From an uncultured Pseudomonadota bacterium (GTDB taxonomy: Bacteria > SAR324 > NAC60-12): a stretch of 21,763 nt of DNA. Positions 2,547 to 19,848 of this stretch are shown piece by piece. The notes below the pieces were generated by a model. The model was not told the origin of the DNA and did no database searches. It was given only the letters and a program-made list of their open reading frames with translations. The DNA lies in the NCBI GenBank assembly GCA_913020725.1, contig CAJWCD010000057.1, forward strand, positions 1-21,763. The letters are read 5' to 3'. Every line of letters begins with the position of its first letter. Position 1 is the stretch's first letter. The translations under genes were made by a program, and so were the position numbers.

Positions 2547-3326
2547 ATGACTTCCGATGACCCGAAAATCGGCATTGCAGGCGGGGCCGGCCCCTATGCC
2601 GGGCTCGACCTTGCGCAAATGCTGTTGGAGGAAACCATTGCAGAGCAGGAGCAGGATCACCTGTCGACCGTGCTGCTTTCGACCCCGGAGCAGATCGAGG
2701 ACCGCACCCGCTTTTTGCTAGGCGAAGCGACTGTCAATCCCGCCCATGTGCTTTTCCGGAACGTGAGGGATTTGGAGTCGTTGGGAGCCTCTGTTGTCGG
2801 GCTTCCCTGCAACACGGCTCATGCTGCGAAGATTTGGTCGGTGCTGACCCGCAAGCTGGAGCAGTCCGGCTGCCGCGTCCGCCTGCTCGACATGATCGCG
2901 GAAACAGCAGATTTTCTGCGGGTGGAATGTCCAGAGGTGCAAACCGTGGGGGTGCTTTCCACGATTGGAACGTGGCGGGCTGCATTCTACCCGACCTTGC
3001 TGGAAGCGCAGGGCTACCGTGTGATGGTGCTGGAGGAAACCCAACAACGCGAGCTTCACGAAGAGGCGCTTTATCACCCCAAACACGGCATCAAGGCACA
3101 GGCCCATCCGGTCACGACTCAGGCCCGTCGTGTGCTGCTCGATGGAGTGCGCACCCTCGAATCGCAAGGCGCAGAAGCCGTGATCCTTGGCTGCACCGAA
3201 ATTCCCCTCGGCCTTCCGGAACGTCGGCTCGGAGCAACCTACCTCGTCAACCCCGGACGCATCCTCGCCCGTGCCCTCATCCGCGAATTCCAGCTTGAGC
3301 GGCTACGACCTTGGAGTTGGGAGTGA
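2547..3326 (+). CDS. Aspartate/glutamate racemase family protein (PLP-independent, two catalytic Cys)
   Basis: IGIAGGAGP, IEDRT, LPCNTAH and ILGCTEIP motifs; 259 aa. Confidence 0.92.
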   Translation: MTSDDPKIGIAGGAGPYAGLDLAQMLLEETIAEQEQDHLSTVLLSTPEQIEDRTRFLLGEATVNPAHVLFRNVRDLESLGASVVGLPCNTAHAAKIWSVLTRKLEQSGCRVRLLDMIAETADFLRVECPEVQTVGVLSTIGTWRAAFYPTLLEAQGYRVMVLEETQQRELHEEALYHPKHGIKAQAHPVTTQARRVLLDGVRTLESQGAEAVILGCTEIPLGLPERRLGATYLVNPGRILARALIREFQLERLRPWSWE

Positions 3327-3412: not shown

Positions 3413-4618
3413 ATGCCCAAAACTCATCAAGTGATCATCGCTGGAGCCGGACCCGTCGGGCTGGTGGCCGCATTGGCACTGGTGCAGCGTGAGGTGTCCG
3501 TGCTTGTGCTGGAGGCCGAGCCCGGCTTGACCCGCGACCTGCGGGCTGGTTCGTTTCATCCGCCCACTGTGGAAATGTTGGACACGCTTGGTGTGGGAAC
3601 TCCTATGCACAAAGCGGGGTTGAAGGTGCCCGTCTGGCAATTCCGGGATCGACTGGAGGGCGTGGTTGCCGAATTCGACCTCGGATTGCTGCGGGAGGAA
3701 ACCCATTTTCCGTACCGTCTGCACCTTGAACAACACCGACTGACTCCGATGCTGCTGGAACGCCTCCAGACTTATCCGGAGGCGGAGGTGCAATTTTCTG
3801 CAGCCGTGTCCAAATTTACACAAGACTCCAATGGAGTCACCGTCACGGTCGAAACCGCAGGAGACCGACAGGAAATCCGAGGCGAATGGTTGCTTGGCGC
3901 AGATGGCGGACGCAGCTCGGTGCGTCGAGAAACCGGCATCGAGTTCGAGGGCTACACATGGCCGGAACGTTTTCTTGTTGCCAGCACCACGCGGGAGTTG
4001 GGCGACCACGGTTTTGCGCACACCGCCTACATTGCCGATCCCGACCGCTGGGCAGCGGTCTTCAAGGTTCCTGACGAAGGCCCGCCCGGCCTTTGGCGCA
4101 TTGCTTACCCCACCGATCCAGAAATCCCGGAAGCAGAAGTGCTGGCTTCCGATGAAATCCAGCGGCGCTTAGAGGAACTGTTTTCGTTTGGGGGGACATT
4201 TCCGCTCAAGTACCGCAGCACCTACCGTGTTCACCAGCGCGTCGCCAAGCAATTCCGAAGCGGGCGTGTGCTGCTGGCAGGTGACGCCGCCCACGTCAAC
4301 AATCCGCTCGGGGGTTTCGGACTCAACGGCGGCATCCACGATGCGGTCAACCTTGCGGAAAAACTGGCAGAGGTGATCCACCTGCGGGCAGATTCGGAAT
4401 GGATGGATCGCTACGAGGTACAGCGGCGCACCGTCAATGTTGAGTACGTTCAAGCCCAGAGCATCCGCAATAAGCGCATGATCGAAGCTCGCGATCCTGC
4501 CGTTCGGAAAAAGAATCTTGCAGAAATGCAACAAATCGCCGCAGACCCGCAACGCGCCAAGGCGCATTTGCTCAATACTTCTATGATCAACTCCGTCCGG
4601 CGAGCAGCGGCATTGTGA
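3413..4618 (+). CDS. FAD-dependent aromatic monooxygenase (group A, MhpA/PheA-like)
   Basis: GAGPVG Rossmann motif, LLGADGGRSSVR (DG motif), RVLLAGDAAHVNNPLGGFGLNGGIHDA (GD motif). Confidence 0.9.
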   Translation: MPKTHQVIIAGAGPVGLVAALALVQREVSVLVLEAEPGLTRDLRAGSFHPPTVEMLDTLGVGTPMHKAGLKVPVWQFRDRLEGVVAEFDLGLLREETHFPYRLHLEQHRLTPMLLERLQTYPEAEVQFSAAVSKFTQDSNGVTVTVETAGDRQEIRGEWLLGADGGRSSVRRETGIEFEGYTWPERFLVASTTRELGDHGFAHTAYIADPDRWAAVFKVPDEGPPGLWRIAYPTDPEIPEAEVLASDEIQRRLEELFSFGGTFPLKYRSTYRVHQRVAKQFRSGRVLLAGDAAHVNNPLGGFGLNGGIHDAVNLAEKLAEVIHLRADSEWMDRYEVQRRTVNVEYVQAQSIRNKRMIEARDPAVRKKNLAEMQQIAADPQRAKAHLLNTSMINSVRRAAAL

Positions 4619-4624
4619 TGAGGG

Positions 4625-5680
4625 TTAGTCGTGGCGTTGCTCCCGCCACAGTCCGAGTTTCTTCTGGCTCACCTGATCGGAAAAAGAAAACAGCACCACC
4701 TCTCCCTCTGTTTCGTGGGCATACGGATACCAGCCAGGAATGACAAAATGATCCCTCGGTCCCCACTCAATCTCGGTTTGATTTTCTCCCTCACCGACCA
4801 CGGTGCGTCCGGTTCCCTCGACCACCGAGAAGATCTGATGTTCAGTGGTTTGGTAACGTTGACTCTGGAAGTTCTGGGGCAGTCCGTGCAGGAACGCCGA
4901 AATCGTCGGCATTACCGAACCCCCGTCCATCGGGTTGCGGTATTCCAACTTGTAGCCGTGCCACAGATTGGGTTTCCGCGAGGCACACAATTGCTCCAAG
5001 GCGGGGCGCGTTTGAGAATAAGGGTATGAGAACAACGGAGATGCAGGATCGGTCGGTTCATCATCAACGGCCCGCAGATTAGCCCCATAGCGGGCATTGC
5101 ACGTTTCGGGAGGGCGAGTGGCGGGGTAGCGCTCTTCAGGGTAATTTTCTCCAAAGGTGGCTCCGAAAAAATGCGCCTGCGGGATGTCAAGTCCGTCGAG
5201 CCAGACCATCGCCCCTACGCCCTCATGTCCGTGATCGTGCCATGACCACGACGGGGTGAGGATAAAATCACCTACGCTCATGTAGGCGCGTTCGCCATCC
5301 ACCGCCGTGTACGCCCCTTCTCCCTCGAGGATAAACCGCAAGGCCGCCGGAGTGTGCCGATGCGCCGGTGCGACCTCGCCCGGCAGGATGAGTTGCAGTC
5401 CGGCGTAAAGCGTGTCCGCGGTACGGGCCTCGCCTCGCAGCACCGGGTTCTCCAAAATCAACACTCGGCGTTCCGCTTCCTTGGCACTGATGAGGGTTCC
5501 GGATTCCATCAAAAATGGCCGCACCTGCTCGTATTGCCAGAGGTGGGGCACCGCTCGCGTGATTGGTTTAGGAGCCACCAAGCGGTGAATCACCTCCCAA
5601 AGCGGGGCGAGTTCTTGTTTGTCGATGCGGCTGTAAAACTCCGCTAGTTCTGGGTTCGGTGAATTTTCAGGTGTGTCCAT
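4625..5680 (-). CDS. gtdA: Gentisate 1,2-dioxygenase (bicupin)
   Basis: APLWE, AERRVLILENP, LYAGLQLILPGEVAPAHRH, PSWSWHDH, WLDGLDIP, FSFSD; 351 aa. Confidence 0.93.
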   Translation of the reverse strand: MDTPENSPNPELAEFYSRIDKQELAPLWEVIHRLVAPKPITRAVPHLWQYEQVRPFLMESGTLISAKEAERRVLILENPVLRGEARTADTLYAGLQLILPGEVAPAHRHTPAALRFILEGEGAYTAVDGERAYMSVGDFILTPSWSWHDHGHEGVGAMVWLDGLDIPQAHFFGATFGENYPEERYPATRPPETCNARYGANLRAVDDEPTDPASPLFSYPYSQTRPALEQLCASRKPNLWHGYKLEYRNPMDGGSVMPTISAFLHGLPQNFQSQRYQTTEHQIFSVVEGTGRTVVGEGENQTEIEWGPRDHFVIPGWYPYAHETEGEVVLFSFSDQVSQKKLGLWREQRHD

Positions 5681-5783
5681 GTTTTGCTCACTATTCAGGT
5701 GGAGAGGCTGTAGGAAAGAATCATTTACAATGTGCAGATGCGAACCACCTTCAGCCTAAGCCTAAACAACTTCAATAGCTACC

Positions 5784-6890
5784 TCACAGCGCGTTTTCCA
5801 ATAACACCAACAAGTCTGCGGCATTGGCAGGTCGGGGGTTGGTTTGGCAGAGGTGATCCTTGGCGGCAACAGCAGCAATTTCTGGCAACGAGTCACGGAT
5901 TACTCCAAGCTCGGAAAGTCGGATCGGCAGTCCCAATTTCAGGATCAAGGCTTGCGACCACTCCGCTAAATTCATATGTGCAGGCAATTGCAACACTTGC
6001 CGTAGCCGTGTGTATTTTTCTTTGGCATGGCTGGCGTTGAAGCGCAACACATGCGGTAGCAGGACCGCATTGAGTGAGCCGTGATGCAAGCCCAGTGCAC
6101 CAAGGGGATGCGAAAGTGCGTGAATCGCACCCAACCCTTTCTGGAAGGTCATGCCGCCCTCAAGCGAGGCCATCAGCATTTGCCAGCGTGCTTCGCGGTT
6201 TTGTCCATCAGCAACAACCGGCTCCAGCCAAGATTCGGATCGCACCACGCAGTCGAGTGCAATCGCTTCGGCAGGTGGATTGTTGCGGGTTGAGAGAAAC
6301 GATTCAATGCCGTGGGTGAGGGCATCCACTCCGGTCGCGGCGGTCATTTCCGGAGGCAGTGTCAGCGTTAACTCAGGATCGCAAAGTGCACAATCTGGGA
6401 TCAACTTTAGGCTAACACAGGCGCTCTTGCTTCCGTCGTTCAGAGTGATCGAACAGGCCCGTCCGACTTCGGATCCAGTTCCAGCCGTGGTGGGAATGGC
6501 AATCATTGGAGCGACAGTTCTAATGCGTTCGCTACCCCCGCCAAGAATTCCGTAGTCGGACAAGACACCCGGGTGCGTAGCTAGGAGCGCTACTGCTTTT
6601 GCCAAGTCAATTACTGAACCTCCACCCAGTGCCACCAGTCCATCGCATCCTTCCTGACGATACACCTCCAGCGCATCCAGCACCGCCGCTTCCGTGGGAT
6701 TTCCGGGGGTGTCGGTAAAGACCGGGATTCCCGGATACAACGACAAGGCTCGCTCAACAAGTCCGGCAGCTTGCACTCCGGGGTCAGACACAAGCAGCGG
6801 ACGCTTCAGGTTGAGCAACGCCAGTTCGTTGGACAACAGTTCCAATGCCCCGAAGTCAAATTGAATGCGGGTGAGGTAGTGAATCAACAC
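5784..6890 (-). CDS. Iron-containing alcohol dehydrogenase family protein (resembles 4-hydroxybutyrate dehydrogenase-like members)
   Basis: GGGSVIDLAKA, IPTTAGTGSEV, DALTHGIES, GAIHALSH, HHGSLNAV; GTG start 6 nt after the dctM stop. Confidence 0.92.
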   Translation of the reverse strand: MLIHYLTRIQFDFGALELLSNELALLNLKRPLLVSDPGVQAAGLVERALSLYPGIPVFTDTPGNPTEAAVLDALEVYRQEGCDGLVALGGGSVIDLAKAVALLATHPGVLSDYGILGGGSERIRTVAPMIAIPTTAGTGSEVGRACSITLNDGSKSACVSLKLIPDCALCDPELTLTLPPEMTAATGVDALTHGIESFLSTRNNPPAEAIALDCVVRSESWLEPVVADGQNREARWQMLMASLEGGMTFQKGLGAIHALSHPLGALGLHHGSLNAVLLPHVLRFNASHAKEKYTRLRQVLQLPAHMNLAEWSQALILKLGLPIRLSELGVIRDSLPEIAAVAAKDHLCQTNPRPANAADLLVLLENAL

Positions 6891-6896
6891 CGAAGA

Positions 6897-8201
6897 TCAG
6901 CCGTACATCCTGTTTGGCAGAAACATTGCGATGTCGGGGAACAACACGAGAATCAACAACGCAAACCCCATGGCAATCCAGAACGGAAAAATTCCTTTGA
7001 AGATGTCATTCAGTGGAACGCTCGGTGCGATACTCTTGACGACAAAGACATTGACACCGACTGGTGGGCTGATCAGGCCCATTTCCAGCACGATCACCAT
7101 CAACACACCAAACCAAACCATATTGAAATCAAGCTGTTCCAACACCGGCTGGACCAGTGGCAGTGCCAGCACTAGGATCGCAAACCCTTCTAGAAAAGTG
7201 CCCAGCAGCACGAAAAACACCAGAATGATCGTGAGGGTGACAAAGCGATTCGGGCTGATCTGCATCAGCAGGTCAAGCAAGGCATCAGGGATACCGGAGA
7301 GTGCAACGAACGGTGTGAACACAAAAGCACCGATCAGGATCAGGAATGTTGTCGCAGTCGAACGCAATGTTTCCATCAACACGCCTGAGAGGCTCTGCCA
7401 TGTGATTGTACGACGTAAAAGAGCGACTATGAAGGACAGGATTGCACCGATCCCCGCAGCTTCGGTTGCCGAGAAGACACCGCCATATATTCCGCCGATG
7501 GTGATGAAGATGATGCCGATGATCCACGATGCCCGCCCTAATGCGAGAATCCGGTCTCGCATCGGCATGCTGGTTCCGGCCGCTGGCCCCAACTCAGGTT
7601 TCACGCTTGTCACAATGACAATGACCAGAACGAACAACCCTGCCAGCATGATTCCCGGCAGCACGCCGGCCATGAACAACCGACCAATCGATTCCTCCGT
7701 CAACAGGGAATAGATCACGAAACCCGCCGAGGGCGGAATGAGGATGCCGAGCGTTCCTCCTGCCGCAATGGCTCCAGTCGCCAGCTTGTCGTCATATTTG
7801 TAGCGCTGCATCTCGGGCAAGGCGACGCGGCCCATCGTCACCGCCGATGCCAGCGACGAGCCTGACAGCGCTGAGAAGCCGGCACAACCGATGATCGTTG
7901 ATGAAGCCAACCCGCCTCGCCAATGACCAAACCAAGTATACGCGGCATCATAAAGATCGCGACTCATTCCAGAGATACCTGCCAAGTTTCCCATCAGAAT
8001 GAACAACGGCAGGATTGTCAACGACAGCATGTGCGGAATGTGAAATGTCTCGCCTGCCAAAGTGGGCAGGGCGCCGCGCTCGTTCAGCACAAGGTGTCCA
8101 ACGAAGCCAACCAGCATCATTGCTGTCGCTACTGGCATACGCAGTGCCAGCAAGACGAAAAGTGCAACGAAGCCTATGACCCCGATGTCGATATCGGACA
8201 T
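6897..8201 (-). CDS. dctM: TRAP transporter large permease
   Basis: Polytopic 434 aa; LPLFILMG, SGSSLASA, AAGGTLGILIPPS, ATEAAG, GLISPPVGVNVFV. Confidence 0.95.
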   Translation of the reverse strand: MSDIDIGVIGFVALFVLLALRMPVATAMMLVGFVGHLVLNERGALPTLAGETFHIPHMLSLTILPLFILMGNLAGISGMSRDLYDAAYTWFGHWRGGLASSTIIGCAGFSALSGSSLASAVTMGRVALPEMQRYKYDDKLATGAIAAGGTLGILIPPSAGFVIYSLLTEESIGRLFMAGVLPGIMLAGLFVLVIVIVTSVKPELGPAAGTSMPMRDRILALGRASWIIGIIFITIGGIYGGVFSATEAAGIGAILSFIVALLRRTITWQSLSGVLMETLRSTATTFLILIGAFVFTPFVALSGIPDALLDLLMQISPNRFVTLTIILVFFVLLGTFLEGFAILVLALPLVQPVLEQLDFNMVWFGVLMVIVLEMGLISPPVGVNVFVVKSIAPSVPLNDIFKGIFPFWIAMGFALLILVLFPDIAMFLPNRMYG

Positions 8202-8203
8202 TG

Positions 8204-8737
8204 CTAATTGTTCTTTTCGTTTGGATCAATGGGATCGCGGAAATGCCTCAGTCCGTCTACAAACTCTGCGATGAGTACAAGCCCGTAGGCTCCCAGCCCA
8301 AAGGCCAAGATGATGTAGAACGGCTTAAACGGAATCGCCAAATTGGGCGTGAAGTGGCCACAGCGCAGACCGCAATTTCCTTGCACAAGCAACGCATAGA
8401 CGGTGACTGCAGTGATGCCAATCCCGAGCAGGCGCACAAGGACATCGGTCCATCGGGTGACCCTGCGCCCGCCGACTAGGTTCAAGACATCAACTGCGAC
8501 ATGCGCACCTTCCCGACCTCCATACGCGAACGAACAGGCGACGGTCGTCAGCAGCACCATCTCTGAGATGTCGTAGATGCCAAAAATGGGATCGTTGATG
8601 ATATAGCGGAACACCACTGCAACTCCGGTAATGCCCACAAGGCTCGCCATTGTGAACGATCCTATGTAAGCGACCCACTTGACCATGCGGTCAACATAAT
8701 AAACTGCATGGTCAGAAGTGTTTGGAGATCGTTTCAC
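8204..8737 (-). CDS. dctQ: TRAP transporter small permease
   Basis: Four TM helices with VVFRY and HVAVD motifs, between dctP and dctM. The GTG at 8737 is chosen because the ORF-track start at 8800 overlaps dctP; start uncertain. Confidence 0.88.
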   Translation of the reverse strand: MKRSPNTSDHAVYYVDRMVKWVAYIGSFTMASLVGITGVAVVFRYIINDPIFGIYDISEMVLLTTVACSFAYGGREGAHVAVDVLNLVGGRRVTRWTDVLVRLLGIGITAVTVYALLVQGNCGLRCGHFTPNLAIPFKPFYIILAFGLGAYGLVLIAEFVDGLRHFRDPIDPNEKNN

Positions 8738-8771
8738 GAAAACTCTTACAAAGGCTGGGTAATGAATTGGG

Positions 8772-9776
8772 CTAGTTGTCGAGTCCGCCCATCGCCTCAA
8801 TCACCTGAGCACCAGTTAAACCCGGTCGCAAGGTTTTCTTCTTGTAGGCTGTAATGGCTGGTGCCATGGCAGCTTGGAACCGCTTGACCTCGGCAGCAGA
8901 CAGGGTGATCAGTTTGACGCCGTTGCCAGCAGCGATTTTGAGCCCCCGCTTACCAGCAGCGTCATAGCCCTTGCCGCCTGCACGCGACAGATCCGGACCA
9001 CTGGCCTGCTCAACCCACGCCTGCTCTTTTGCGGAAAGGTCATTCCACACCTCTTTGTTCATCAGCAGAAAGAAGGCTGAGACCGAGGGCGGCAGGTTGA
9101 CGGTAATGTGGTTGGCAGGTTCCCAGAGTTTGAATGAACCAATCGCGCTCGAGCCAATGTGAATCGCGTCAATCGTACCGTTTGACAGATTTTGATGGAT
9201 CACATTGACGGGTTGCGCAACGGCACTAGCACCAAGTGCCTCAATGTAGGGAACATCCTGCGCAGAAGTGACGCGAATGATCATGCCCTTGACATCCTCC
9301 AGCTTACGCACAGGCTTGTCCTTAGTGATCAGCACCTTGGTTTCATTGGTCCAGATTGCCAGCACCTTGGCGTCGTATTCGGTGTCGATCAGTTTTCTTG
9401 CCTTAATCATACGCTCTGTGCCGTCAATGGCATTCTTGGCCAGACCTGGAACGGTGATCGTATTGGTCACCGGGAACAACTGACCTGTGTAGCCCGGCAG
9501 GCTAAATGAAATGTCAACCACGCCTTCAAGCAGTCGCGAATACTGCTGTGGAGGTGCTGCGTTGAGTGTCCCGCCCGGAAACAATTTGACGGTCAATTCG
9601 CCTCCGCTGATCTTTTTGAGATCGTTGGCAAAGCGCTGGAACACGGCTTTGTTCATCGGGTGCTTGGGACTCATGAAAAAGGAAAGTTTCAGTTGCTTGC
9701 CCCAGGCCGGTCCCGCCAGCAGTGCCCATGCAAGGGTTGCCAGCAGCAGAGTGCTTAATACAGTCCACTTCTTCAT
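8772..9776 (-). CDS. dctP: TRAP transporter substrate-binding protein
   Basis: Signal peptide ending PAWG; SGGELTVKLFPGGTL; PVRKLEDVKGMIIRV (conserved carboxylate-binding Arg region); AAGGAG RBS upstream. Confidence 0.94.
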   Translation of the reverse strand: MKKWTVLSTLLLATLAWALLAGPAWGKQLKLSFFMSPKHPMNKAVFQRFANDLKKISGGELTVKLFPGGTLNAAPPQQYSRLLEGVVDISFSLPGYTGQLFPVTNTITVPGLAKNAIDGTERMIKARKLIDTEYDAKVLAIWTNETKVLITKDKPVRKLEDVKGMIIRVTSAQDVPYIEALGASAVAQPVNVIHQNLSNGTIDAIHIGSSAIGSFKLWEPANHITVNLPPSVSAFFLLMNKEVWNDLSAKEQAWVEQASGPDLSRAGGKGYDAAGKRGLKIAAGNGVKLITLSAAEVKRFQAAMAPAITAYKKKTLRPGLTGAQVIEAMGGLDN

Positions 9777-9802
9777 CGTTATCTCCTTGGTTGATGGTTT
9801 GT

Positions 9803-9863
9803 GGGAAGTCCATGCTTCCCGAGTTATCCCCTTGCGGGGATCGGATATGCCGCAGTTGCGGCA
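9803..9863 (-). other. Three tandem hairpins in the rdhA-dctP spacer
   Basis: GGGAAG/CTTCCC (9803-9820); ATCCCC/GGGGAT with a GCAA loop on the mRNA strand (9826-9841); TGCCGC/GCGGCA (9848-9863). No U-tract. Confidence 0.55.
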
Positions 9864-9866
9864 CGT

Positions 9867-12005
9867 TCAGACCTTCTCAATCTGAGCGGGTTTGTAATGC
9901 TCCGGAGTCGCTTTTCCGGACTGGTAGCGGGCCAGCGCCTGCTTAGGGGTTTCGAGTTTGTGCTTGGCGGCAAGCGCCTGTTTGCGGTCCACCGGAAAGG
10001 GTTCAAGGTGATCCGGAGGGGGCATCTGCTCCGCGTGGTAGTAGGCGATCGAGTGCTTGTCCGGATCCAGTTTCTTGTCCAAGTTCAGTTCCCGGCGGTT
10101 GGTGCCCTTCGGCTCTACGGCTTTGCCGTCCACCCATTCAAGATCGTACCACCACTTCTTGACAAGATTGATGCGCCCGTTGCCCACCTTGTCGTCGAGA
10201 TCGGCGATCCACTTGCGGGTGAAGGGCAGGTGAATCGCCATCTTCAGGAAGAGGTCGTGGACGAGCAGCCCTTCGTGGTTGTACGGACAGGTTTTCATGC
10301 AGCGGCCACACGCGGAGCCTTTGGCGTTGGTGACACGGTAGCGGACGCAGCGCTCCGCGTCCGGTTTCCACATTTCGTAGCCGTTGAACATCACAGTGTC
10401 TCCCCAACTGATCGCCTGACACGGACACTCCCGTGCACACTTGCGGCATTTTTGGCACATGTCCTGAAGTCCGAAATCAATCGGCTGGTCGTGAGCGAGC
10501 GGCAGGTCGGTGGTGACCACGATGGACTTGAAGCGTGGGCCGACGAAGGGGTTGAGGACCAGTTCCCCGATGCGGCTCAGTTCGCCAAGTCCGGCGTAGA
10601 GAACGAGCGGGATGTGCAGGACTTCGCTGTCCAAGTTGGAATGTACGCGGGCGGAGTAGCCTAGCCTGCGGATGAACTCGGCCATTTGTCCGCCGACGGT
10701 CGCGCCCCGCAAGTAGCCACGCATGGACTGCGCCCCGCTGATCCAGTCGTCGCCGCTTGCACCGTCCATTGTTTCGTAGCCCTGATCAATGAGCATGACG
10801 ATAGCGTGGCGGTGTCGGGGTTCGATGGGTTTGCCGTCATCATCGTGTGAGAACCACGCAAAGCGCTTGGCCTCACAGATGCCGGTGAGGTCCATGTTGA
10901 GGAAGTAGGAAAGCGACTTGATCGCCTTAGCATTCTCAATGGAATCGTCCATGTTCGGTGCCTTTTCCGCAGCGACTTCGCCATCCTGATGCGGCACCAA
11001 ACCCCGGATCATCGGAACCATTCCCATCGTGAAGGGATGCTTGATTGCAAAGCGGTCGCGTTCCACCTGCGTCTTTGCTCCAAGGTCCCCCTTGCGTGCC
11101 CGTTCGAAAAACGCGGCGCGTTTTGGAACGCGTGGCACCTCGTCCTCCAACACCAGCGTGGTTGGGCGGGGCACCTTGCGGATCGTCTCCATCGGGTGCT
11201 GGCTCCAGTGCGAGGGGCGCTGACGGAGCCGTTCACGCTCACGTTCCGGAACTGCCCCGTCCACGCCCCACTGGAAGCGCCAGTCGCGTTCGGGCTTGGT
11301 CGGAGTTTCGACGAGGGGCAAGTCCGGCTGCACCGGCATGTCGCAACTCACCACTGCCGTGCCGAATCCAGCTTCCAAAAACGGGTTGACCACCTGCCCG
11401 CCTTGCCAACGGCCCAGCCCGGAGCAGACGGTTAGCAGCTCGTGATCGAGATCTGACTTGTTAGCCGAATGCGATTTGGCGTGCCAGCCGAGGTGTCTGA
11501 TGTAACCCGCAATGGTGACGGCAATCTCAGCAGCCCTTACAGCCGCCCGCTCGGCCTGTGCATCCCGGAGCCATTCCGCAGCGAGGTTTTCCGGCTCCGG
11601 TTCCCGGACATATTCCACGACGATCACGAGCGCGTTGCCGTGGTACGGCGTCATTGTCTCCCCGGACTCCGTTTCAGCGAACCACGCGGCCTCCGGAATC
11701 TCACAAGCCCCAACCATCGAGGCGTCCATGAAGTAACTTGCCGCCTTCATCTGTTGAGTGAGATCAAGCGGATCCTCCGCAATTGGAGCTTTTTCCTTGG
11801 CGGGGGTTCCGTCCTGCCACTGGTCGAGCAGATCGTTGTAGTCATTTGCAACCTCCGCAAAGCGCAGAGACGGTTCGCTGCGTTTCCGGACAGGGCGGGG
11901 CTTGCGTCCAGAGGGAATTCCCGGAATCACCGTAGTGCGTTCCAGCCGCTCCAGCGGATAAGGGCCAAGGTGAACCGGACGACGCTTGTTGGAAAACAGC
12001 TTCAT
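9867..12005 (-). CDS. rdhA: Catabolic, cobalamin-dependent reductive dehalogenase (NpRdhA/BhbA-type, no C-terminal reductase)
   Basis: N-terminus MKLFSNKRRPVHLGPYPLERL; DQGYETMDGASGDDWISGAQSMRGY; AGLGELSRIG; NPFVGPRFKS..VTTDLP; two 4Fe-4S motifs (CQKCRKCARECP and C..YR...GSACGRCMKTCP); duplicated N-terminal domain. ATG at 12005 preferred; the extension to 12068 runs into the MITE. Confidence 0.93.
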   Translation of the reverse strand: MKLFSNKRRPVHLGPYPLERLERTTVIPGIPSGRKPRPVRKRSEPSLRFAEVANDYNDLLDQWQDGTPAKEKAPIAEDPLDLTQQMKAASYFMDASMVGACEIPEAAWFAETESGETMTPYHGNALVIVVEYVREPEPENLAAEWLRDAQAERAAVRAAEIAVTIAGYIRHLGWHAKSHSANKSDLDHELLTVCSGLGRWQGGQVVNPFLEAGFGTAVVSCDMPVQPDLPLVETPTKPERDWRFQWGVDGAVPERERERLRQRPSHWSQHPMETIRKVPRPTTLVLEDEVPRVPKRAAFFERARKGDLGAKTQVERDRFAIKHPFTMGMVPMIRGLVPHQDGEVAAEKAPNMDDSIENAKAIKSLSYFLNMDLTGICEAKRFAWFSHDDDGKPIEPRHRHAIVMLIDQGYETMDGASGDDWISGAQSMRGYLRGATVGGQMAEFIRRLGYSARVHSNLDSEVLHIPLVLYAGLGELSRIGELVLNPFVGPRFKSIVVTTDLPLAHDQPIDFGLQDMCQKCRKCARECPCQAISWGDTVMFNGYEMWKPDAERCVRYRVTNAKGSACGRCMKTCPYNHEGLLVHDLFLKMAIHLPFTRKWIADLDDKVGNGRINLVKKWWYDLEWVDGKAVEPKGTNRRELNLDKKLDPDKHSIAYYHAEQMPPPDHLEPFPVDRKQALAAKHKLETPKQALARYQSGKATPEHYKPAQIEKV

Positions 12006-12014
12006 GGAATTTTG

Positions 12015-12249
12015 GGGTCTATGCCATTTCAAGTGGATTTGCCAAGCAACACAACCCATCCGGCTCATGTCGGCAAGTTAGGTGACGCGATGCCGCCCCC
12101 TGGGGAGGTAGCACCGGGTGGCACACCGGTGCTTGCGCCTGCAAAAATCGCTCATCAGGGGGCGTGAGCACGGGTGTGCCGCCCCGTGCTACCAGTCGCT
12201 TTTCACCTGTTTCCCGACATGAGCCCTCCACTCAATGTGGCATAGACCC
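12015..12249. mobile_element. 235-bp non-autonomous MITE-like element
   Basis: 23-bp terminal inverted repeats, 19/23 identical with the first 12 bp perfect (GGGTCTATGCCA; 12015-12037 and 12227-12249). Flanking 8-bp near-direct repeat GAATTTTG (12007-12014) / AAATTTTG (12250-12257). No transposase. Confidence 0.75.
12107..12193. repeat. Inverted pair of 27-bp REP-like palindromes (REPIN-like)
   Basis: GGTAGCACCGGGTGGCACACCGGTGCT (12107-12133, +) and GGTAGCACGGGGCGGCACACCCGTGCT (12167-12193, -). 24/27 identical; each has GTAG followed by an 8-bp stem. Confidence 0.7.
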
Positions 12250-16343: not shown

Positions 16344-16748
16344 CTAGTCCCGCTCCTCCCAAGCACGGAGGCGGGCATCGTAGTCCGCTGGGTTGAGGGT
16401 GTGGATTTTGGAAGCGCGGGGGCTGCCGTGCTGGAGGAGGGCCTGCTCGCGCATGCGACGCATTTCCAAGAGGTACGACTGCCCTTCGAAGAGTTCGAGC
16501 TGGGAGTCGGAATAGGGAGCATGCAGCCGAGCCTCCCGCTCGATTTTCAAGTGACAGCGAGCGCAGAGTGGGATCAGATTTCCTGGAGCATTGTTTGACG
16601 GATTTTCGTCAATGTGGTGTACCTGCAACTGCTGCTCGCCGCTACGGATGCTCTGGCAGTCCTGTCCGCAACGGGCGCAGTGGTGGTTGAACAACTCGCG
16701 GATGAAACGGGAAATCGTCGTCCATTCCTCGTGATAGCGCTCATCCAT
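16344..16748 (-). CDS. Stand-alone HNH endonuclease (zinc-binding)
   Basis: CARCG ... LQVHHIDENPSNN...NLIPLCARCH. Confidence 0.88.
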   Translation of the reverse strand: MDERYHEEWTTISRFIRELFNHHCARCGQDCQSIRSGEQQLQVHHIDENPSNNAPGNLIPLCARCHLKIEREARLHAPYSDSQLELFEGQSYLLEMRRMREQALLQHGSPRASKIHTLNPADYDARLRAWEERD

Positions 16749-16854
16749 GTGGCAAATCCCGCTTTATGAATTGCTCAAATTCCCGTATCATTGTCAAGAA
16801 ACGCTGCCCTCCGGTTGCCAGAGTACTTTTTGAAACACCCTTGTTAGGAAAAAT

Positions 16855-17277
16855 ATGGCCCTTTCCCGTGACGAATTCATCGACATCCTCACCATCGTCA
16901 ACTACCTTGCTCACTCCGACGGCGACATGCATCCTGCCGAGAAGAAGGTGCTGATTGCAACCTTCAAAGCCGGAGCGGTGACTCCAGAAGAGCAGGGCAG
17001 GATGAAGGGCAAGTCCTCACTGGAGGAGATGCTGCAAGAGATCCAAACCGATGATGCCAAGCAGACCCTGATCGACCTGCTCGCGCTCGTGGCCAGTTCC
17101 GACGGGAAGTTTGAGGAGGAGGAGCGCGTGGTGATGGTCAAAGTCATGAAGAAGCTGGGAATGAGTCCGGACGAGTACCGTTTCTTCAAGGATGGGCAGG
17201 ATTTGGACGTTCCTGCCGTGCGAGCCGCCGTCATGGAAATCCTCCGCGACCTCAAAACCCAAGTCACCTCCGGTTGA
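16855..17277 (+). CDS. TerB-like protein
   Basis: Two TerB-type motifs, LAHSDGDMHPAE and VASSDGKFEEEE; AGGA RBS-like sequence upstream; 140 aa. Confidence 0.85.
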   Translation: MALSRDEFIDILTIVNYLAHSDGDMHPAEKKVLIATFKAGAVTPEEQGRMKGKSSLEEMLQEIQTDDAKQTLIDLLALVASSDGKFEEEERVVMVKVMKKLGMSPDEYRFFKDGQDLDVPAVRAAVMEILRDLKTQVTSG

Positions 17278-17287
17278 CCAGACCCCA

Positions 17288-18514
17288 CTAACTGCTTTTC
17301 CGCGCTTGCTTACGAGGCTTCGGAGGCTTGCTCACAGCCTCCGAAGCGGGTTTCCCGCTTTCCGCCTTTTCCTGCTCAATCTGCTGATGCAGTGACCGCA
17401 TCACCGTGTGAATCAGTTCGACACTCGCCGTGTCAAACTGTTCGTTGTTCACAACATCAACTTCGTGCACGTTGCACCGGGTCACGCAGTAGTCGTGAAT
17501 CTTGCGGATTTGCCCATATTGTTTGAGGTAGCGCACTTCCGGACGGTTGGGGCTTTCCTGCGCTCGTGCGGCGAAGCGGGAGCGGTGTTCCTTAGGATTG
17601 AGCAAGGAAATCAGCACGGTCACGACATACGCTCCTTCCGGAGGAGACTGCTGGAATTCCAACAGCAACGGCAGCAGATGGACTCCCTCCAAAATGACAT
17701 TCTGCCGCTCCTTGATGGAGCGGCGGATGGTGGCCCGGATGCCCACGCCCACATGCTGCGCCTGTAACTGGTAGCCCGCCAGCACTTGCTCGCTGCTCAC
17801 GCTCCCCCGCAACTTGAGCAATTCTCCCACCTGTGAGGATGAGGTGTGCAGGGTCGGCAGCAGTTCCTCGGTGAACACCAGCCGCATGATCTCCCGGATC
17901 GTGTCCGTGCCGATCACCTTGTGGATGCCCAAACGGGTACCCAGTGTCGTGGCAAGGGCGGATTTTCCGATTCCGGTGCCACCACCGATGCAAATGATCA
18001 ACGGTTTCGGCAGTTTGTCCAGTTGGCTGGAAATCCGGTAAAGGACTGCGGTTTCTTCACCATAAACCCGCAACAATGTCTTCTGGACCCGTGCAAACAA
18101 CTCTGCCTTCGACACCACCTCCTGTTGCTTCTGGATCAGCCGGGATTCGATGCGCAACGCCATTTGGTAGGCTTTCTGCGGTGGAATGCCGGAAGCACTG
18201 ATGGAAAACGCAAGCAGTCCTTTGGAGAAGGGTGTGGTGTCTTTGCCTTGACCCACACGGATTTCAAAATCCTCGTGGTGCCACGAGGGTTTCAGTTGCT
18301 CGAAGACCGTGGCTCCAAAGTTCTGCCGAATGAGTTGATCGGCGGTTTCCACCAATTTTTGCACTGGAATCAGGGCGTTCTGGCGGAATTGCGCCCGGGT
18401 TTCGGTGGCAATCTGGTACGCCTGCTCAAAGGGCAGCCCGCGCTGGATGAGCTTGTGTGCGAGAATCCCCCGGACGTAGGGTTCCTTGGTGTTGTTGGGT
18501 TTAATTACCTTCAT
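17288..18514 (-). CDS. 2-phosphoglycerate kinase-like P-loop kinase with two ATP-cone domains
   Basis: Cone 1 PYVRGILAHKL..GLPFEQAYQIA; cone 2 PFSKGLLAFSISASGIPPQKAYQMA; kinase PLIICIGGGTGIGKS..LGTRLGI..VIGTDTIREIMR, PTLHTSS, ILEGVHL, HRSRF. ATG at 18514 preferred. Confidence 0.85.
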   Translation of the reverse strand: MKVIKPNNTKEPYVRGILAHKLIQRGLPFEQAYQIATETRAQFRQNALIPVQKLVETADQLIRQNFGATVFEQLKPSWHHEDFEIRVGQGKDTTPFSKGLLAFSISASGIPPQKAYQMALRIESRLIQKQQEVVSKAELFARVQKTLLRVYGEETAVLYRISSQLDKLPKPLIICIGGGTGIGKSALATTLGTRLGIHKVIGTDTIREIMRLVFTEELLPTLHTSSSQVGELLKLRGSVSSEQVLAGYQLQAQHVGVGIRATIRRSIKERQNVILEGVHLLPLLLEFQQSPPEGAYVVTVLISLLNPKEHRSRFAARAQESPNRPEVRYLKQYGQIRKIHDYCVTRCNVHEVDVVNNEQFDTASVELIHTVMRSLHQQIEQEKAESGKPASEAVSKPPKPRKQARKSS

Positions 18515-18525
18515 GGGTGAACTCT

Positions 18526-19848
18526 CTACGGCCAAGTGTGCTTGCCAGCCCACGCAGAGCATTCCCGCCGGTCGGCATCCACCGTGGCCCAATAACTCGC
18601 CCAAGCAGCGGAAGGTCCTACGGTGTCCACCGTCGGTGGCCCTTTGCTAACCATGGCGTCCGGGCGCGGAATTGCCTCGGGAATTCCCTGTCCATTGCCG
18701 ACGGCGTTGATCGCTTGCAGCAGCAGTTTGCGATTGGCGATGATCGCCTTGTCGGTGGTGCCCAACTGTTCGGTGGTGCGGTTCTGAATCGGCCCCGGAG
18801 ATTCGACTGCCCACTGGTCGTGAACATTGATGTCTCGGCCCATGCCGGTGTAGGTGAGTTCGCGCTGCTCTTTGGGATCGTAGCCGTAGCGGTTCGTTTT
18901 GTTGAGACGCGGCAGGTAGTCCGGCAGTGAGTAGAGTTCCAGACGCTGCTCCCGCATCGTGGCGTGGTCCACGGGGGTGTTAAAGGCGGTGAAGATCGCG
19001 TACCAGTAGCTGTGTGTGTCATCCACTGGAACATGCCACTGCGTGATGGTCATGTCGTTGCTCATAGGAATGACGATGGCCTGTGGAAACAGCAGGTTGG
19101 TCACCCGGATATGAGTTTGGGAGGCGTTGAGTTCACGCCGGGTGATGAGGCGTAGGCCGTAAGCAGTGCTTTCAACGTCAATCTGGGGCTTGGGAAATTT
19201 CCGCAGCACCTTCGTGATCGGAAGGGCCGCGCCACTGGTGTTGTCCCGGAACTGCTGCCCGTAGCCCTCCGCAGCGTCCTCATCCACGAAAAAACGATGC
19301 AGGAACGAAGCGTGGGCAGGGTCAATGCCAACCTCCACCGCCTGTAACCAATTGCACTCCAAGAAGCCCTTGAAGGCGAAGGTGAACTCGCCGGGAGCGC
19401 TGAAGCAATCAAGCTCCGGAAGTGGAGGTGGATCACCGACTCCGAGATAGGCGAAGACGATGCCGTTACGCTCTTCGCAGGGGTAGGCGGTGTGGCGGAT
19501 TTTTTCGTGAAAGACACTCCCGGAGGGTTCGGCGGGCTGCTCCAAACATTTGCCCTTGGCATCCAACAGCCAGCCATGAAACGGACAGCGCAAGCCGCCA
19601 GCTTCCAAGCGTCCATAGCACAGGTCAGTTCCACGATGCGGGCAGTGCCGTCCGATCAAACCGTAGTGTCCGGACTCGTCCCGGAACGCCACCAAGTCCT
19701 CGCCGAGCAAACGCACTGCCTTCACGGGGCGTTCGCCCTCCAGTTCCTCCGTCAGCACGGCTGGTTGCCAGTAACGGCGCAGTACCTGACCTCCGGACGT
19801 GCCCGCTCCAGTTTGCGTGATGAGCCTGTTCTGTTCCTCGTTCAGCAT
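18526..19848 (-). CDS. Rieske non-heme iron oxygenase alpha subunit (phthalate 4,5-dioxygenase/LigXa-like group)
   Basis: LRRYWQP; Rieske CPHRG...CPFHGW; mononuclear Fe site CNWLQAVEVGIDPAHASFLH; HDQWAVES; LGTTDKAI. Confidence 0.93.
   Translation of the reverse strand: MLNEEQNRLITQTGAGTSGGQVLRRYWQPAVLTEELEGERPVKAVRLLGEDLVAFRDESGHYGLIGRHCPHRGTDLCYGRLEAGGLRCPFHGWLLDAKGKCLEQPAEPSGSVFHEKIRHTAYPCEERNGIVFAYLGVGDPPPLPELDCFSAPGEFTFAFKGFLECNWLQAVEVGIDPAHASFLHRFFVDEDAAEGYGQQFRDNTSGAALPITKVLRKFPKPQIDVESTAYGLRLITRRELNASQTHIRVTNLLFPQAIVIPMSNDMTITQWHVPVDDTHSYWYAIFTAFNTPVDHATMREQRLELYSLPDYLPRLNKTNRYGYDPKEQRELTYTGMGRDINVHDQWAVESPGPIQNRTTEQLGTTDKAIIANRKLLLQAINAVGNGQGIPEAIPRPDAMVSKGPPTVDTVGPSAAWASYWATVDADRRECSAWAGKHTWP

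Follow-up and report, generated by a model that had tools for sequence, protein, structure and literature searches.

A candidate dehalogenase, TRAP transporter and gentisate dioxygenase operon for halogenated hydroxybenzoates in a marine SAR324 bacterium

Background

Every characterised catabolic reductive dehalogenase (RdhA) acts on ortho-halophenols; for the truncated members of this group the native electron donor has not been reconstituted, and both natural substrates and donors are open questions (PMC10463259). That a catabolic RdhA can go together with a transporter and ring-cleavage enzymes is already known from the bhb system. Here we describe a gene string in a stretch of 21,763 nucleotides (contig CAJWCD010000057.1 of assembly GCA_913020725.1, hereafter the window) from an uncultured bacterium of the SAR324 lineage, in which a catabolic rdhA gene is followed by genes for a tripartite ATP-independent periplasmic (TRAP) transporter (dctPQM), an iron-containing alcohol dehydrogenase (Fe-ADH) and a gentisate 1,2-dioxygenase (gtdA). 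Within a genome of 3.45 Mb that is 93% complete (G000), this stretch forms contig C57, and seawater sequencing runs contain near-identical sequence. Our preferred reading, to which we assign a probability of roughly 0.4, is that rdhA-dctPQM-(adh)-gtdA forms one aerobic scavenging operon for an ortho-halogenated hydroxybenzoate, with a gentisate-type exit. Judged from its genes, the bacterium is likely to use hydroxybenzoates that carry bromine or iodine as food, through a pathway that would be new for this enzyme type. The original prediction had not recognised a coupling of RdhA with gentisate cleavage as described, and likewise no description was found in the literature searched, which left supplements and most subscription papers outside its scope; the accessible part of PMC12750322 makes no mention of gentisate.

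Results

The dehalogenase

Open reading frames (ORFs) were checked and families assigned by profile models with curated cut-offs, which agreed with the seven genes, strands and gaps originally given: from rdhA to gtdA, the genes are separated by 90, 34, 2, 6 and 103 bp. The first of these, rdhA (9867-12005, minus strand), encodes a truncated catabolic B12 reductive dehalogenase of 712 aa of the NpRdhA type, which aligns over its full length and from its first residue with NpRdhA (4RAS/6ZXU, E 1e-201), scores 196.5 bits against TIGR02486 (cut-off 160) and contains two [4Fe-4S] motifs, at 517 and 566. No twin-arginine translocation motif was found in it, and together with the full-length alignment this bears out the predicted cytoplasmic location and NpRdhA-type assignment. 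The end-to-end alignment indicates that the N-terminal vestigial domain and the core are kept; the C-terminal phthalate dioxygenase reductase (PDR) domain is absent, the fused forms (BhbA and those of G005 and G014) being 1071-1093 aa long. With the site residues of NpRdhA taken from PMC7565698, the equivalents of S422, Y426, K488 and R552, the hydroxyl-binding and proton-donor set, are all retained, as are M423, N452, F290, F291 and F310. The differences are A419G, P311A and K307R, and an alignment of 78 of the 80 fetched rdhA loci (two could not be extracted) has Gly419 in 78/78, Ala311 in 56 and Arg307 in 68. A locally adapted pocket was thus ruled out, these residues being the subfamily default. 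Its sequence predicts a cytoplasmic dehalogenase of the catabolic kind, in which the site for ortho-halophenols is intact.

Two further observations concern this family. The same genome has a second, shorter dehalogenase-like gene (L236, G000:C37:4975-6291) above the TIGR02486 cut-off, whose counterpart in the sister-species genome G001 has two stops inside the match. RdhA forms of about 450 aa, matching residues 261-699 only and lacking the vestigial N-terminal domain, occur in many genomes (including G066:C110, G326:C151 and G446:C92).

The binding protein and its link with RdhA

The transporter consists of the binding protein DctP (8772-9776, PF03480), the small permease DctQ (8204-8737, PF04290; the GTG at 8737 was chosen among several possible starts) and the large permease DctM (6897-8201, TIGR00786 above cut-off), all encoded on the minus strand. 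By sequence and by fold the best solved matches of DctP are aromatic-acid solute-binding proteins (about 25% identity, template modelling (TM) score 0.84), and its top 10 fold ranks hold nine proteins titled as aromatic-acid binders and 5IM2, with other proteins scoring close behind. These nearest matches, at about 25% identity, are in line with the aromatic-acid character predicted for DctP. Arg168, which we take to be the carboxylate-binding arginine, is invariant in 76 sequences. In a tree of 24 rows the window DctP clusters with those of the sister species and G066 and with the rdhA-adjacent DctP of Yoonia (support 100/99).

The association with RdhA recurs on plasmids. DctP relatives were found in 12 plasmid records, of which nine were examined; on three of these (Yoonia, Aminobacter and Nitratireductor OM-1) a catabolic rdhA lies within 12 kb of the DctP relative. 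Such an rdhA occurs in only 8/72,556 plasmid records. The other six examined carry 4-oxalomesaconate clusters (three), a gentisate cluster (one), no clear pathway (one) or no annotation (one), and the three outside the nine are not among the eight rdhA-bearing plasmids. The same holds for genomes: a catabolic RdhA was found in 37 of 401 sampled Alphaproteobacteria, and in 4/4 of those with this DctP, against a base rate, computed without the centre genome, of 36/400. The nominal p value of 6e-5, which becomes 0.004 at a base rate of 25% and 0.004-0.015 across 25-35%, ignores kinship and genome size, and in these four genomes the RdhA sits on another contig, with no rdhA in the flanks of dctP that were fetched. 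Plasmid co-location and genome co-occurrence in unrelated Alphaproteobacteria make the predicted RdhA-TRAP link well supported. A DctP subfamily that tracks catabolic RdhAs also offers a handle: a ligand co-purifying with the binding protein could reveal what the natural substrate is.

Spacer hairpins and RNA libraries

The 90-bp spacer between rdhA and dctP (9777-9866, minus strand) contains three short hairpins and no U-tract. Its fold z is -2.96, and the sister-species spacer has similar hairpins (z -3.03). Three RNA-library contigs terminate at 9853-9857 inside the spacer, a weak hint, and the hairpins likely act to stabilise or process the dctP mRNA. As proof of expression or co-transcription the RNA runs were rejected: all eight consist of assembled contigs, flanking genes are covered too, and one contig type spans even the convergent junction between gtdA and the downstream monooxygenase gene. 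A promoter and terminator scan was at chance level (3 vs 3.1 and 13 vs 10.2). Upstream of rdhA, a long GC-rich hairpin (12060-12200, z -3.4) differs in length among strains; no such hairpin was found in the sister species and no Rfam family matched it. A cobalamin riboswitch was considered for this upstream region and dismissed, Rfam giving only one chance miRNA match (E 0.35).

Gentisate dioxygenase and the optional alcohol dehydrogenase

GtdA (4625-5680, minus strand) is a bicupin gentisate 1,2-dioxygenase scoring 476.6 bits against TIGR02272 (cut-off 442.1), with 2D40 as its best PDB match (E 6e-108), and it carries the Fe-binding histidine motifs AHRH and WHDH as well as a YAGLQ motif. At the equivalent of Gly106 of salicylate 1,2-dioxygenase (SDO), a residue that allows salicylate cleavage in that enzyme (PMC11109138), it also has Gly, as do 2D40 and most aligned orthologues.

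The Fe-ADH gene (5784-6890, minus strand) encodes a 4-hydroxybutyrate-dehydrogenase-like accessory enzyme with 481 bits against NF058672, the model of that family (cut-off 500); a role as maleylacetate reductase was rejected in view of its weak match to 3W5S (E 3e-24). The GC content at third codon positions of this gene is 0.58, close to the 5th percentile of the genome. In contigs of three of the eight RNA-library runs, position 5680 is joined to 6895 across the same 30 other letters and 5681-6894 is gone. This join, seen in RNA-library contigs alone, reads as a natural strain variant without Fe-ADH, in which gtdA lies 32 nt behind dctM. Because of this variant we regard Fe-ADH as a dispensable, optional passenger, and not as the fixed member it had been taken for. 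Fe-ADH has 216 plasmid matches, and the best one, in Celeribacter, adjoins the same TRAP family and gtdA, maiA and FAH (fumarylacetoacetate hydrolase) genes; G238 repeats the dctPQM-ADH order. Since the sister species has only 6 bp between Fe-ADH and gtdA, the variant joins gtdA directly to the TRAP genes, and Celeribacter has its gentisate cluster, the TRAP-GtdA link is moderately supported.

Conservation of the gene set

The full order, including the monooxygenase and racemase genes beyond gtdA, recurs, across a contig break, in a single sister species, whose proteins are 75-92% identical (about 80% identity at the nucleotide level; L001 and G001:C142 were counted as one locus), and two near-identical metagenome contigs keep the order as well. 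In the sister species the DNA upstream of rdhA differs, a tRNA-like sequence (by eye) and two small ORFs replacing the MATE gene (L001:1-900). For a wider survey the best 80 of 419 RdhA relatives were fetched, 79 of them outside the genus. None of these 79 loci has the five-part set of dehalogenase, transporter, Fe-ADH, dioxygenase and monooxygenase whose synteny had been proposed for survey, and the marker genes are rare: gtdA-like genes at two, strong pobA matches at five, dctP at one, Fe-ADH at none and a distant monooxygenase at one. With such low counts the five-part module is not a widespread unit. Two independent truncated rdhA genes have gentisate-dioxygenase-like neighbours, one together with a salicylyl-CoA-hydroxylase-like domain (L063:5874-12172), the other with a co-oriented cupin about 130 bp upstream (L031:8899-12202).

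The convergent monooxygenase

The FAD monooxygenase gene (3413-4618, plus strand) converges on gtdA with 6 bp between their ends, and lies 86 bp behind an Asp/Glu racemase family gene (2547-3326, plus strand; TIGR00035 above cut-off, CuyB 153 of 190), a pairing kept in the sister species. The protein has the compact group A fold and FAD motifs of p-nitrophenol 4-monooxygenase PnpA (E 2e-75, TM 0.91, 35% identity) and HspB (TM 0.90). Both of these enzymes attack the ring para to the phenolic hydroxyl group. They replace a ring substituent by oxygen (PMC8401168). The family itself is large and uncharacterised, with at least 7,913 proteins.

In metagenomes 375 relatives were found; for the best 80 of them (three from the same species, 38/80 reaching 8 kb), gtdA is nearby at 1/77 loci and rdhA at 0/77. 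At the alphaproteobacterial loci (21 found, G305 being left out of the region counts) gtdA is nearby at 0/20, rdhA at 1/20 (L313, about 4.5 kb away) and a maleate-isomerase/arylmalonate-decarboxylase-like gene at 13/20, and RdhA co-occurs with the monooxygenase in 5/16 genomes, which is not significant at a higher base rate. One independent locus (L145) does unite the monooxygenase with an aromatic-acid major facilitator superfamily transporter, FAH and gtdA. Lying on the opposite strand and behind its own racemase, with relatives that pair with maleate-isomerase-like genes and rarely with gtdA, the monooxygenase is only weakly linked to the string, chemically possible as the connection is; it was proposed as a fixed member, and probably forms a separate unit with the racemase. 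More widely, PnpA/HspB-like genes (L305-L324, L134-L210) pair with maleate-isomerase/arylmalonate-decarboxylase-like genes, Bug proteins or an amidohydrolase-DUF4286 set, probably representing several undescribed pathways. Elsewhere in the window, an ATP-cone and 2-phosphoglycerate-kinase-like gene, a TerB-like gene and a small HNH gene (17288-18604 and 16344-17277) have no relation to the string.

Later steps, corrinoid and electron supply in the genome

Genes for the later steps are present in the genome: maiA is above cut-off, with a MaiA/NagL-like enzyme on C36, and a NagK-like FAH hydrolase on C80 is 59% identical to that of Celeribacter. The genome also contains cobQ and cobN, a second gentisate-dioxygenase-like gene and a salicylyl-CoA 5-hydroxylase above cut-off; no hydroxylase of the 3-hydroxybenzoate 6-hydroxylase type was recognised among its six best PF01494 matches. 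No pobA was found in the three genomes of the genus (G000, G001 and G002, 89-93% complete), and the protocatechuate 4,5-cleavage cluster on C14 is complete yet without a pobA found in the genome. For the ferredoxin-NADP reductase (FNR) and PDR family, PF00970 was not found in G000 and PF00175 not in any of the three, in searches whose controls were positive in 9 and 11 of 14. With neither PobA nor an FNR/PDR-family reductase found in the three genomes, the genus seems to lack the protocatechuate route as it is known and also the usual donor of electrons. One small bacterial-type ferredoxin (105 aa, on C5) was found by motif. Besides RdhA the genome has Rieske oxygenases (window 18526-19848, C142 and C38), enzymes that, like RdhA, normally need a reductase of this family.

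Discussion

In the proposed operon, an ortho-bromo- or iodo-hydroxybenzoate would enter through the TRAP system and lose the halogen adjacent to the phenolic hydroxyl group in a B12-dependent reaction of RdhA. Ring opening of the gentisate-type product by GtdA would follow, with the maleylpyruvate passed to the MaiA/NagL-like and NagK-like enzymes. The corrinoid would be home-made, electrons would come from a ferredoxin and not from an FNR/PDR reductase, and the string would be co-transcribed, with Fe-ADH optional and the monooxygenase not required. In the complex of NpRdhA a hydrophobic pocket holds the second ortho position, and by analogy a halogenated gentisate or 3-hydroxybenzoate may fit best, better than a salicylate. 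The operon reading builds on the order and families of the genes, the residues of the active site, the RdhA-TRAP and TRAP-ADH-gentisate pairings seen at other loci and the genes for later steps in the genome. Of the pathway originally predicted, the enzyme assignments, the RdhA-TRAP link and the predicted aromatic-acid character of DctP are supported, but the monooxygenase and Fe-ADH drop out as fixed members.

Several points weigh against a shared gentisate-type pathway. The gene set was not found in G002, which belongs to the same genus (89% complete), and DctP and Fe-ADH orthologues occur in just 2/88 genomes of the phylum sample; the fetched flanks of the closest examined DctP relatives (G066 at 58%, G229, G238 and G417) hold no rdhA, no cognate RdhA reductase was found, and the window has no ferredoxin or ferredoxin-reductase genes. 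JtRdhA has been assayed mainly on 4-substituted or simple halophenols, and the substrate table of PMC10463259 contains neither gentisate nor salicylate. Other points favour a looser string, in which RdhA and the TRAP system would act on ordinary 3,5-dihalo-4-hydroxy aromatics, like the systems already known, and gtdA, with or without the ADH, would be co-expressed for unhalogenated gentisate or salicylate with no substrate in common. RdhA contexts vary widely, with pobA (5/79) a commoner partner than gtdA-like genes (2/79), whose count is hardly more than chance would give (p 0.01-0.09, with copy numbers assumed); the residues of the RdhA pocket are those usual in the subfamily and bear no mark of a gentisate-adapted enzyme; gtdA orthologues (71-74%) in a sister genus adjoin neither rdhA nor TRAP genes, in genomes without this RdhA; and PRK08255-type salicylyl-CoA hydroxylases elsewhere in the genome could supply gentisate. 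A full protocatechuate 4,5-cleavage pathway is also present, unlinked, on C14 (L279:1920-7882), but no pobA to handle 4-hydroxybenzoate was found in the three genus genomes, and two species, as well as the variant lacking the ADH, keep gtdA coupled with the TRAP genes. We regard the looser string as a serious competitor, if on balance unlikely.

The full pathway as first predicted would have the monooxygenase hydroxylate the RdhA product para to the phenolic hydroxyl group (ipso if a halogen is there) to give gentisate. The substituent-for-oxygen exchange of its two closest characterised relatives, its position beside gtdA also in the sister species (at this closeness only these 2/61 relatives), the loci L145 and L313 and the lack of a recognised 3-hydroxybenzoate 6-hydroxylase type among the six best PF01494 matches all speak for it, but the opposite strand, the racemase partner, the neighbourhood counts of its relatives and the insignificant co-occurrence with RdhA do not, and 35% identity to PnpA is too low to transfer a substrate; we consider this pathway improbable. 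An oxidative decarboxylation of the OdcA type, which yields hydroquinone, was also considered for the monooxygenase, and a search for OdcA came back empty. We give slightly less credence still to a special form of it, a two-chemistry route for natural ortho/para-brominated 3-hydroxybenzoates in oxic seawater, in which RdhA, powered without an FNR/PDR-family reductase, would remove ortho halogens, the monooxygenase would swap the para halogen for a hydroxyl group to give gentisate, and GtdA would cleave the ring. Least probable of all, in our view, is that RdhA is a detoxifier or serves another substrate class (such as halophenols or halogenated N-heterocycles), the gene order having arisen by chance on an accessory island that was then fixed in a pair of sister species: the patchy distribution even inside the genus, the different upstream DNA and the activity of JtRdhA on simple iodophenols (PMC10463259) would fit this, but the independent co-location and co-occurrence of RdhA with the TRAP system argue against it.

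For a genus in which no PobA was found, a gentisate exit, if true, would add to the 4-hydroxybenzoate route a further fate of marine organobromines, and the two-chemistry route, if true, would point to the native electron donor of truncated catabolic dehalogenases.

Comparison with known systems

NpRdhA of Nitratireductor pacificus pht-3B (4RAS, 6ZXU; PMC7565698) is likewise a truncated catabolic enzyme with the same catalytic and hydroxyl-binding residues, but with A419, P311 and K307 where the window RdhA has the Gly, Ala and Arg usual in the wider subfamily; its gene reportedly has two ferredoxin genes and one for a ferredoxin reductase as neighbours (PMC10463259), an arrangement that is not universal in this group, whereas none of these lie near the window rdhA. 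Loci in Yoonia sp. SS1-5 and Aminobacter sp. SS-2016 (by annotation alone) likewise have the same DctP family adjoining a catabolic rdhA, but in a MarR-TRAP-rdhA arrangement with a fused RdhA and a MarR regulator, and without gtdA or Fe-ADH. The gentisate half of the string resembles the cluster on pP73C of Celeribacter indicus, which by annotation alone combines Fe-ADH (57%), the same TRAP family and gentisate dioxygenase with maiA and FAH; unlike the window it has no rdhA, and instead a P450, a ferredoxin and an aldehyde dehydrogenase. The window monooxygenase shares the fold of PnpA and HspB (TM 0.90-0.91), at just 33-35% identity. Aerobic reductive dehalogenation followed by para-dihydroxy ring cleavage is also the logic of the dicamba (dichlorogentisate) route, with a glutathione-dependent dehalogenase. 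The pentachlorophenol route joins the same two steps, its dehalogenase also being glutathione-dependent and not B12-dependent as proposed here (PMC5316534). The bhb cluster on plasmid pBHB of Comamonas sp. 7D-2 (BhbA) and the cluster on the Nitratireductor sp. OM-1 plasmid, the latter with the same TRAP family, resemble the window in that genes for a periplasmic binding protein and for ring cleavage lie near that of a catabolic RdhA. They differ in their self-sufficient RdhA with a PDR domain, and in a route through PobA and protocatechuate 4,5-cleavage, which the annotation of pBHB shows in agreement with the contrast drawn originally, where the window has a gentisate dioxygenase.

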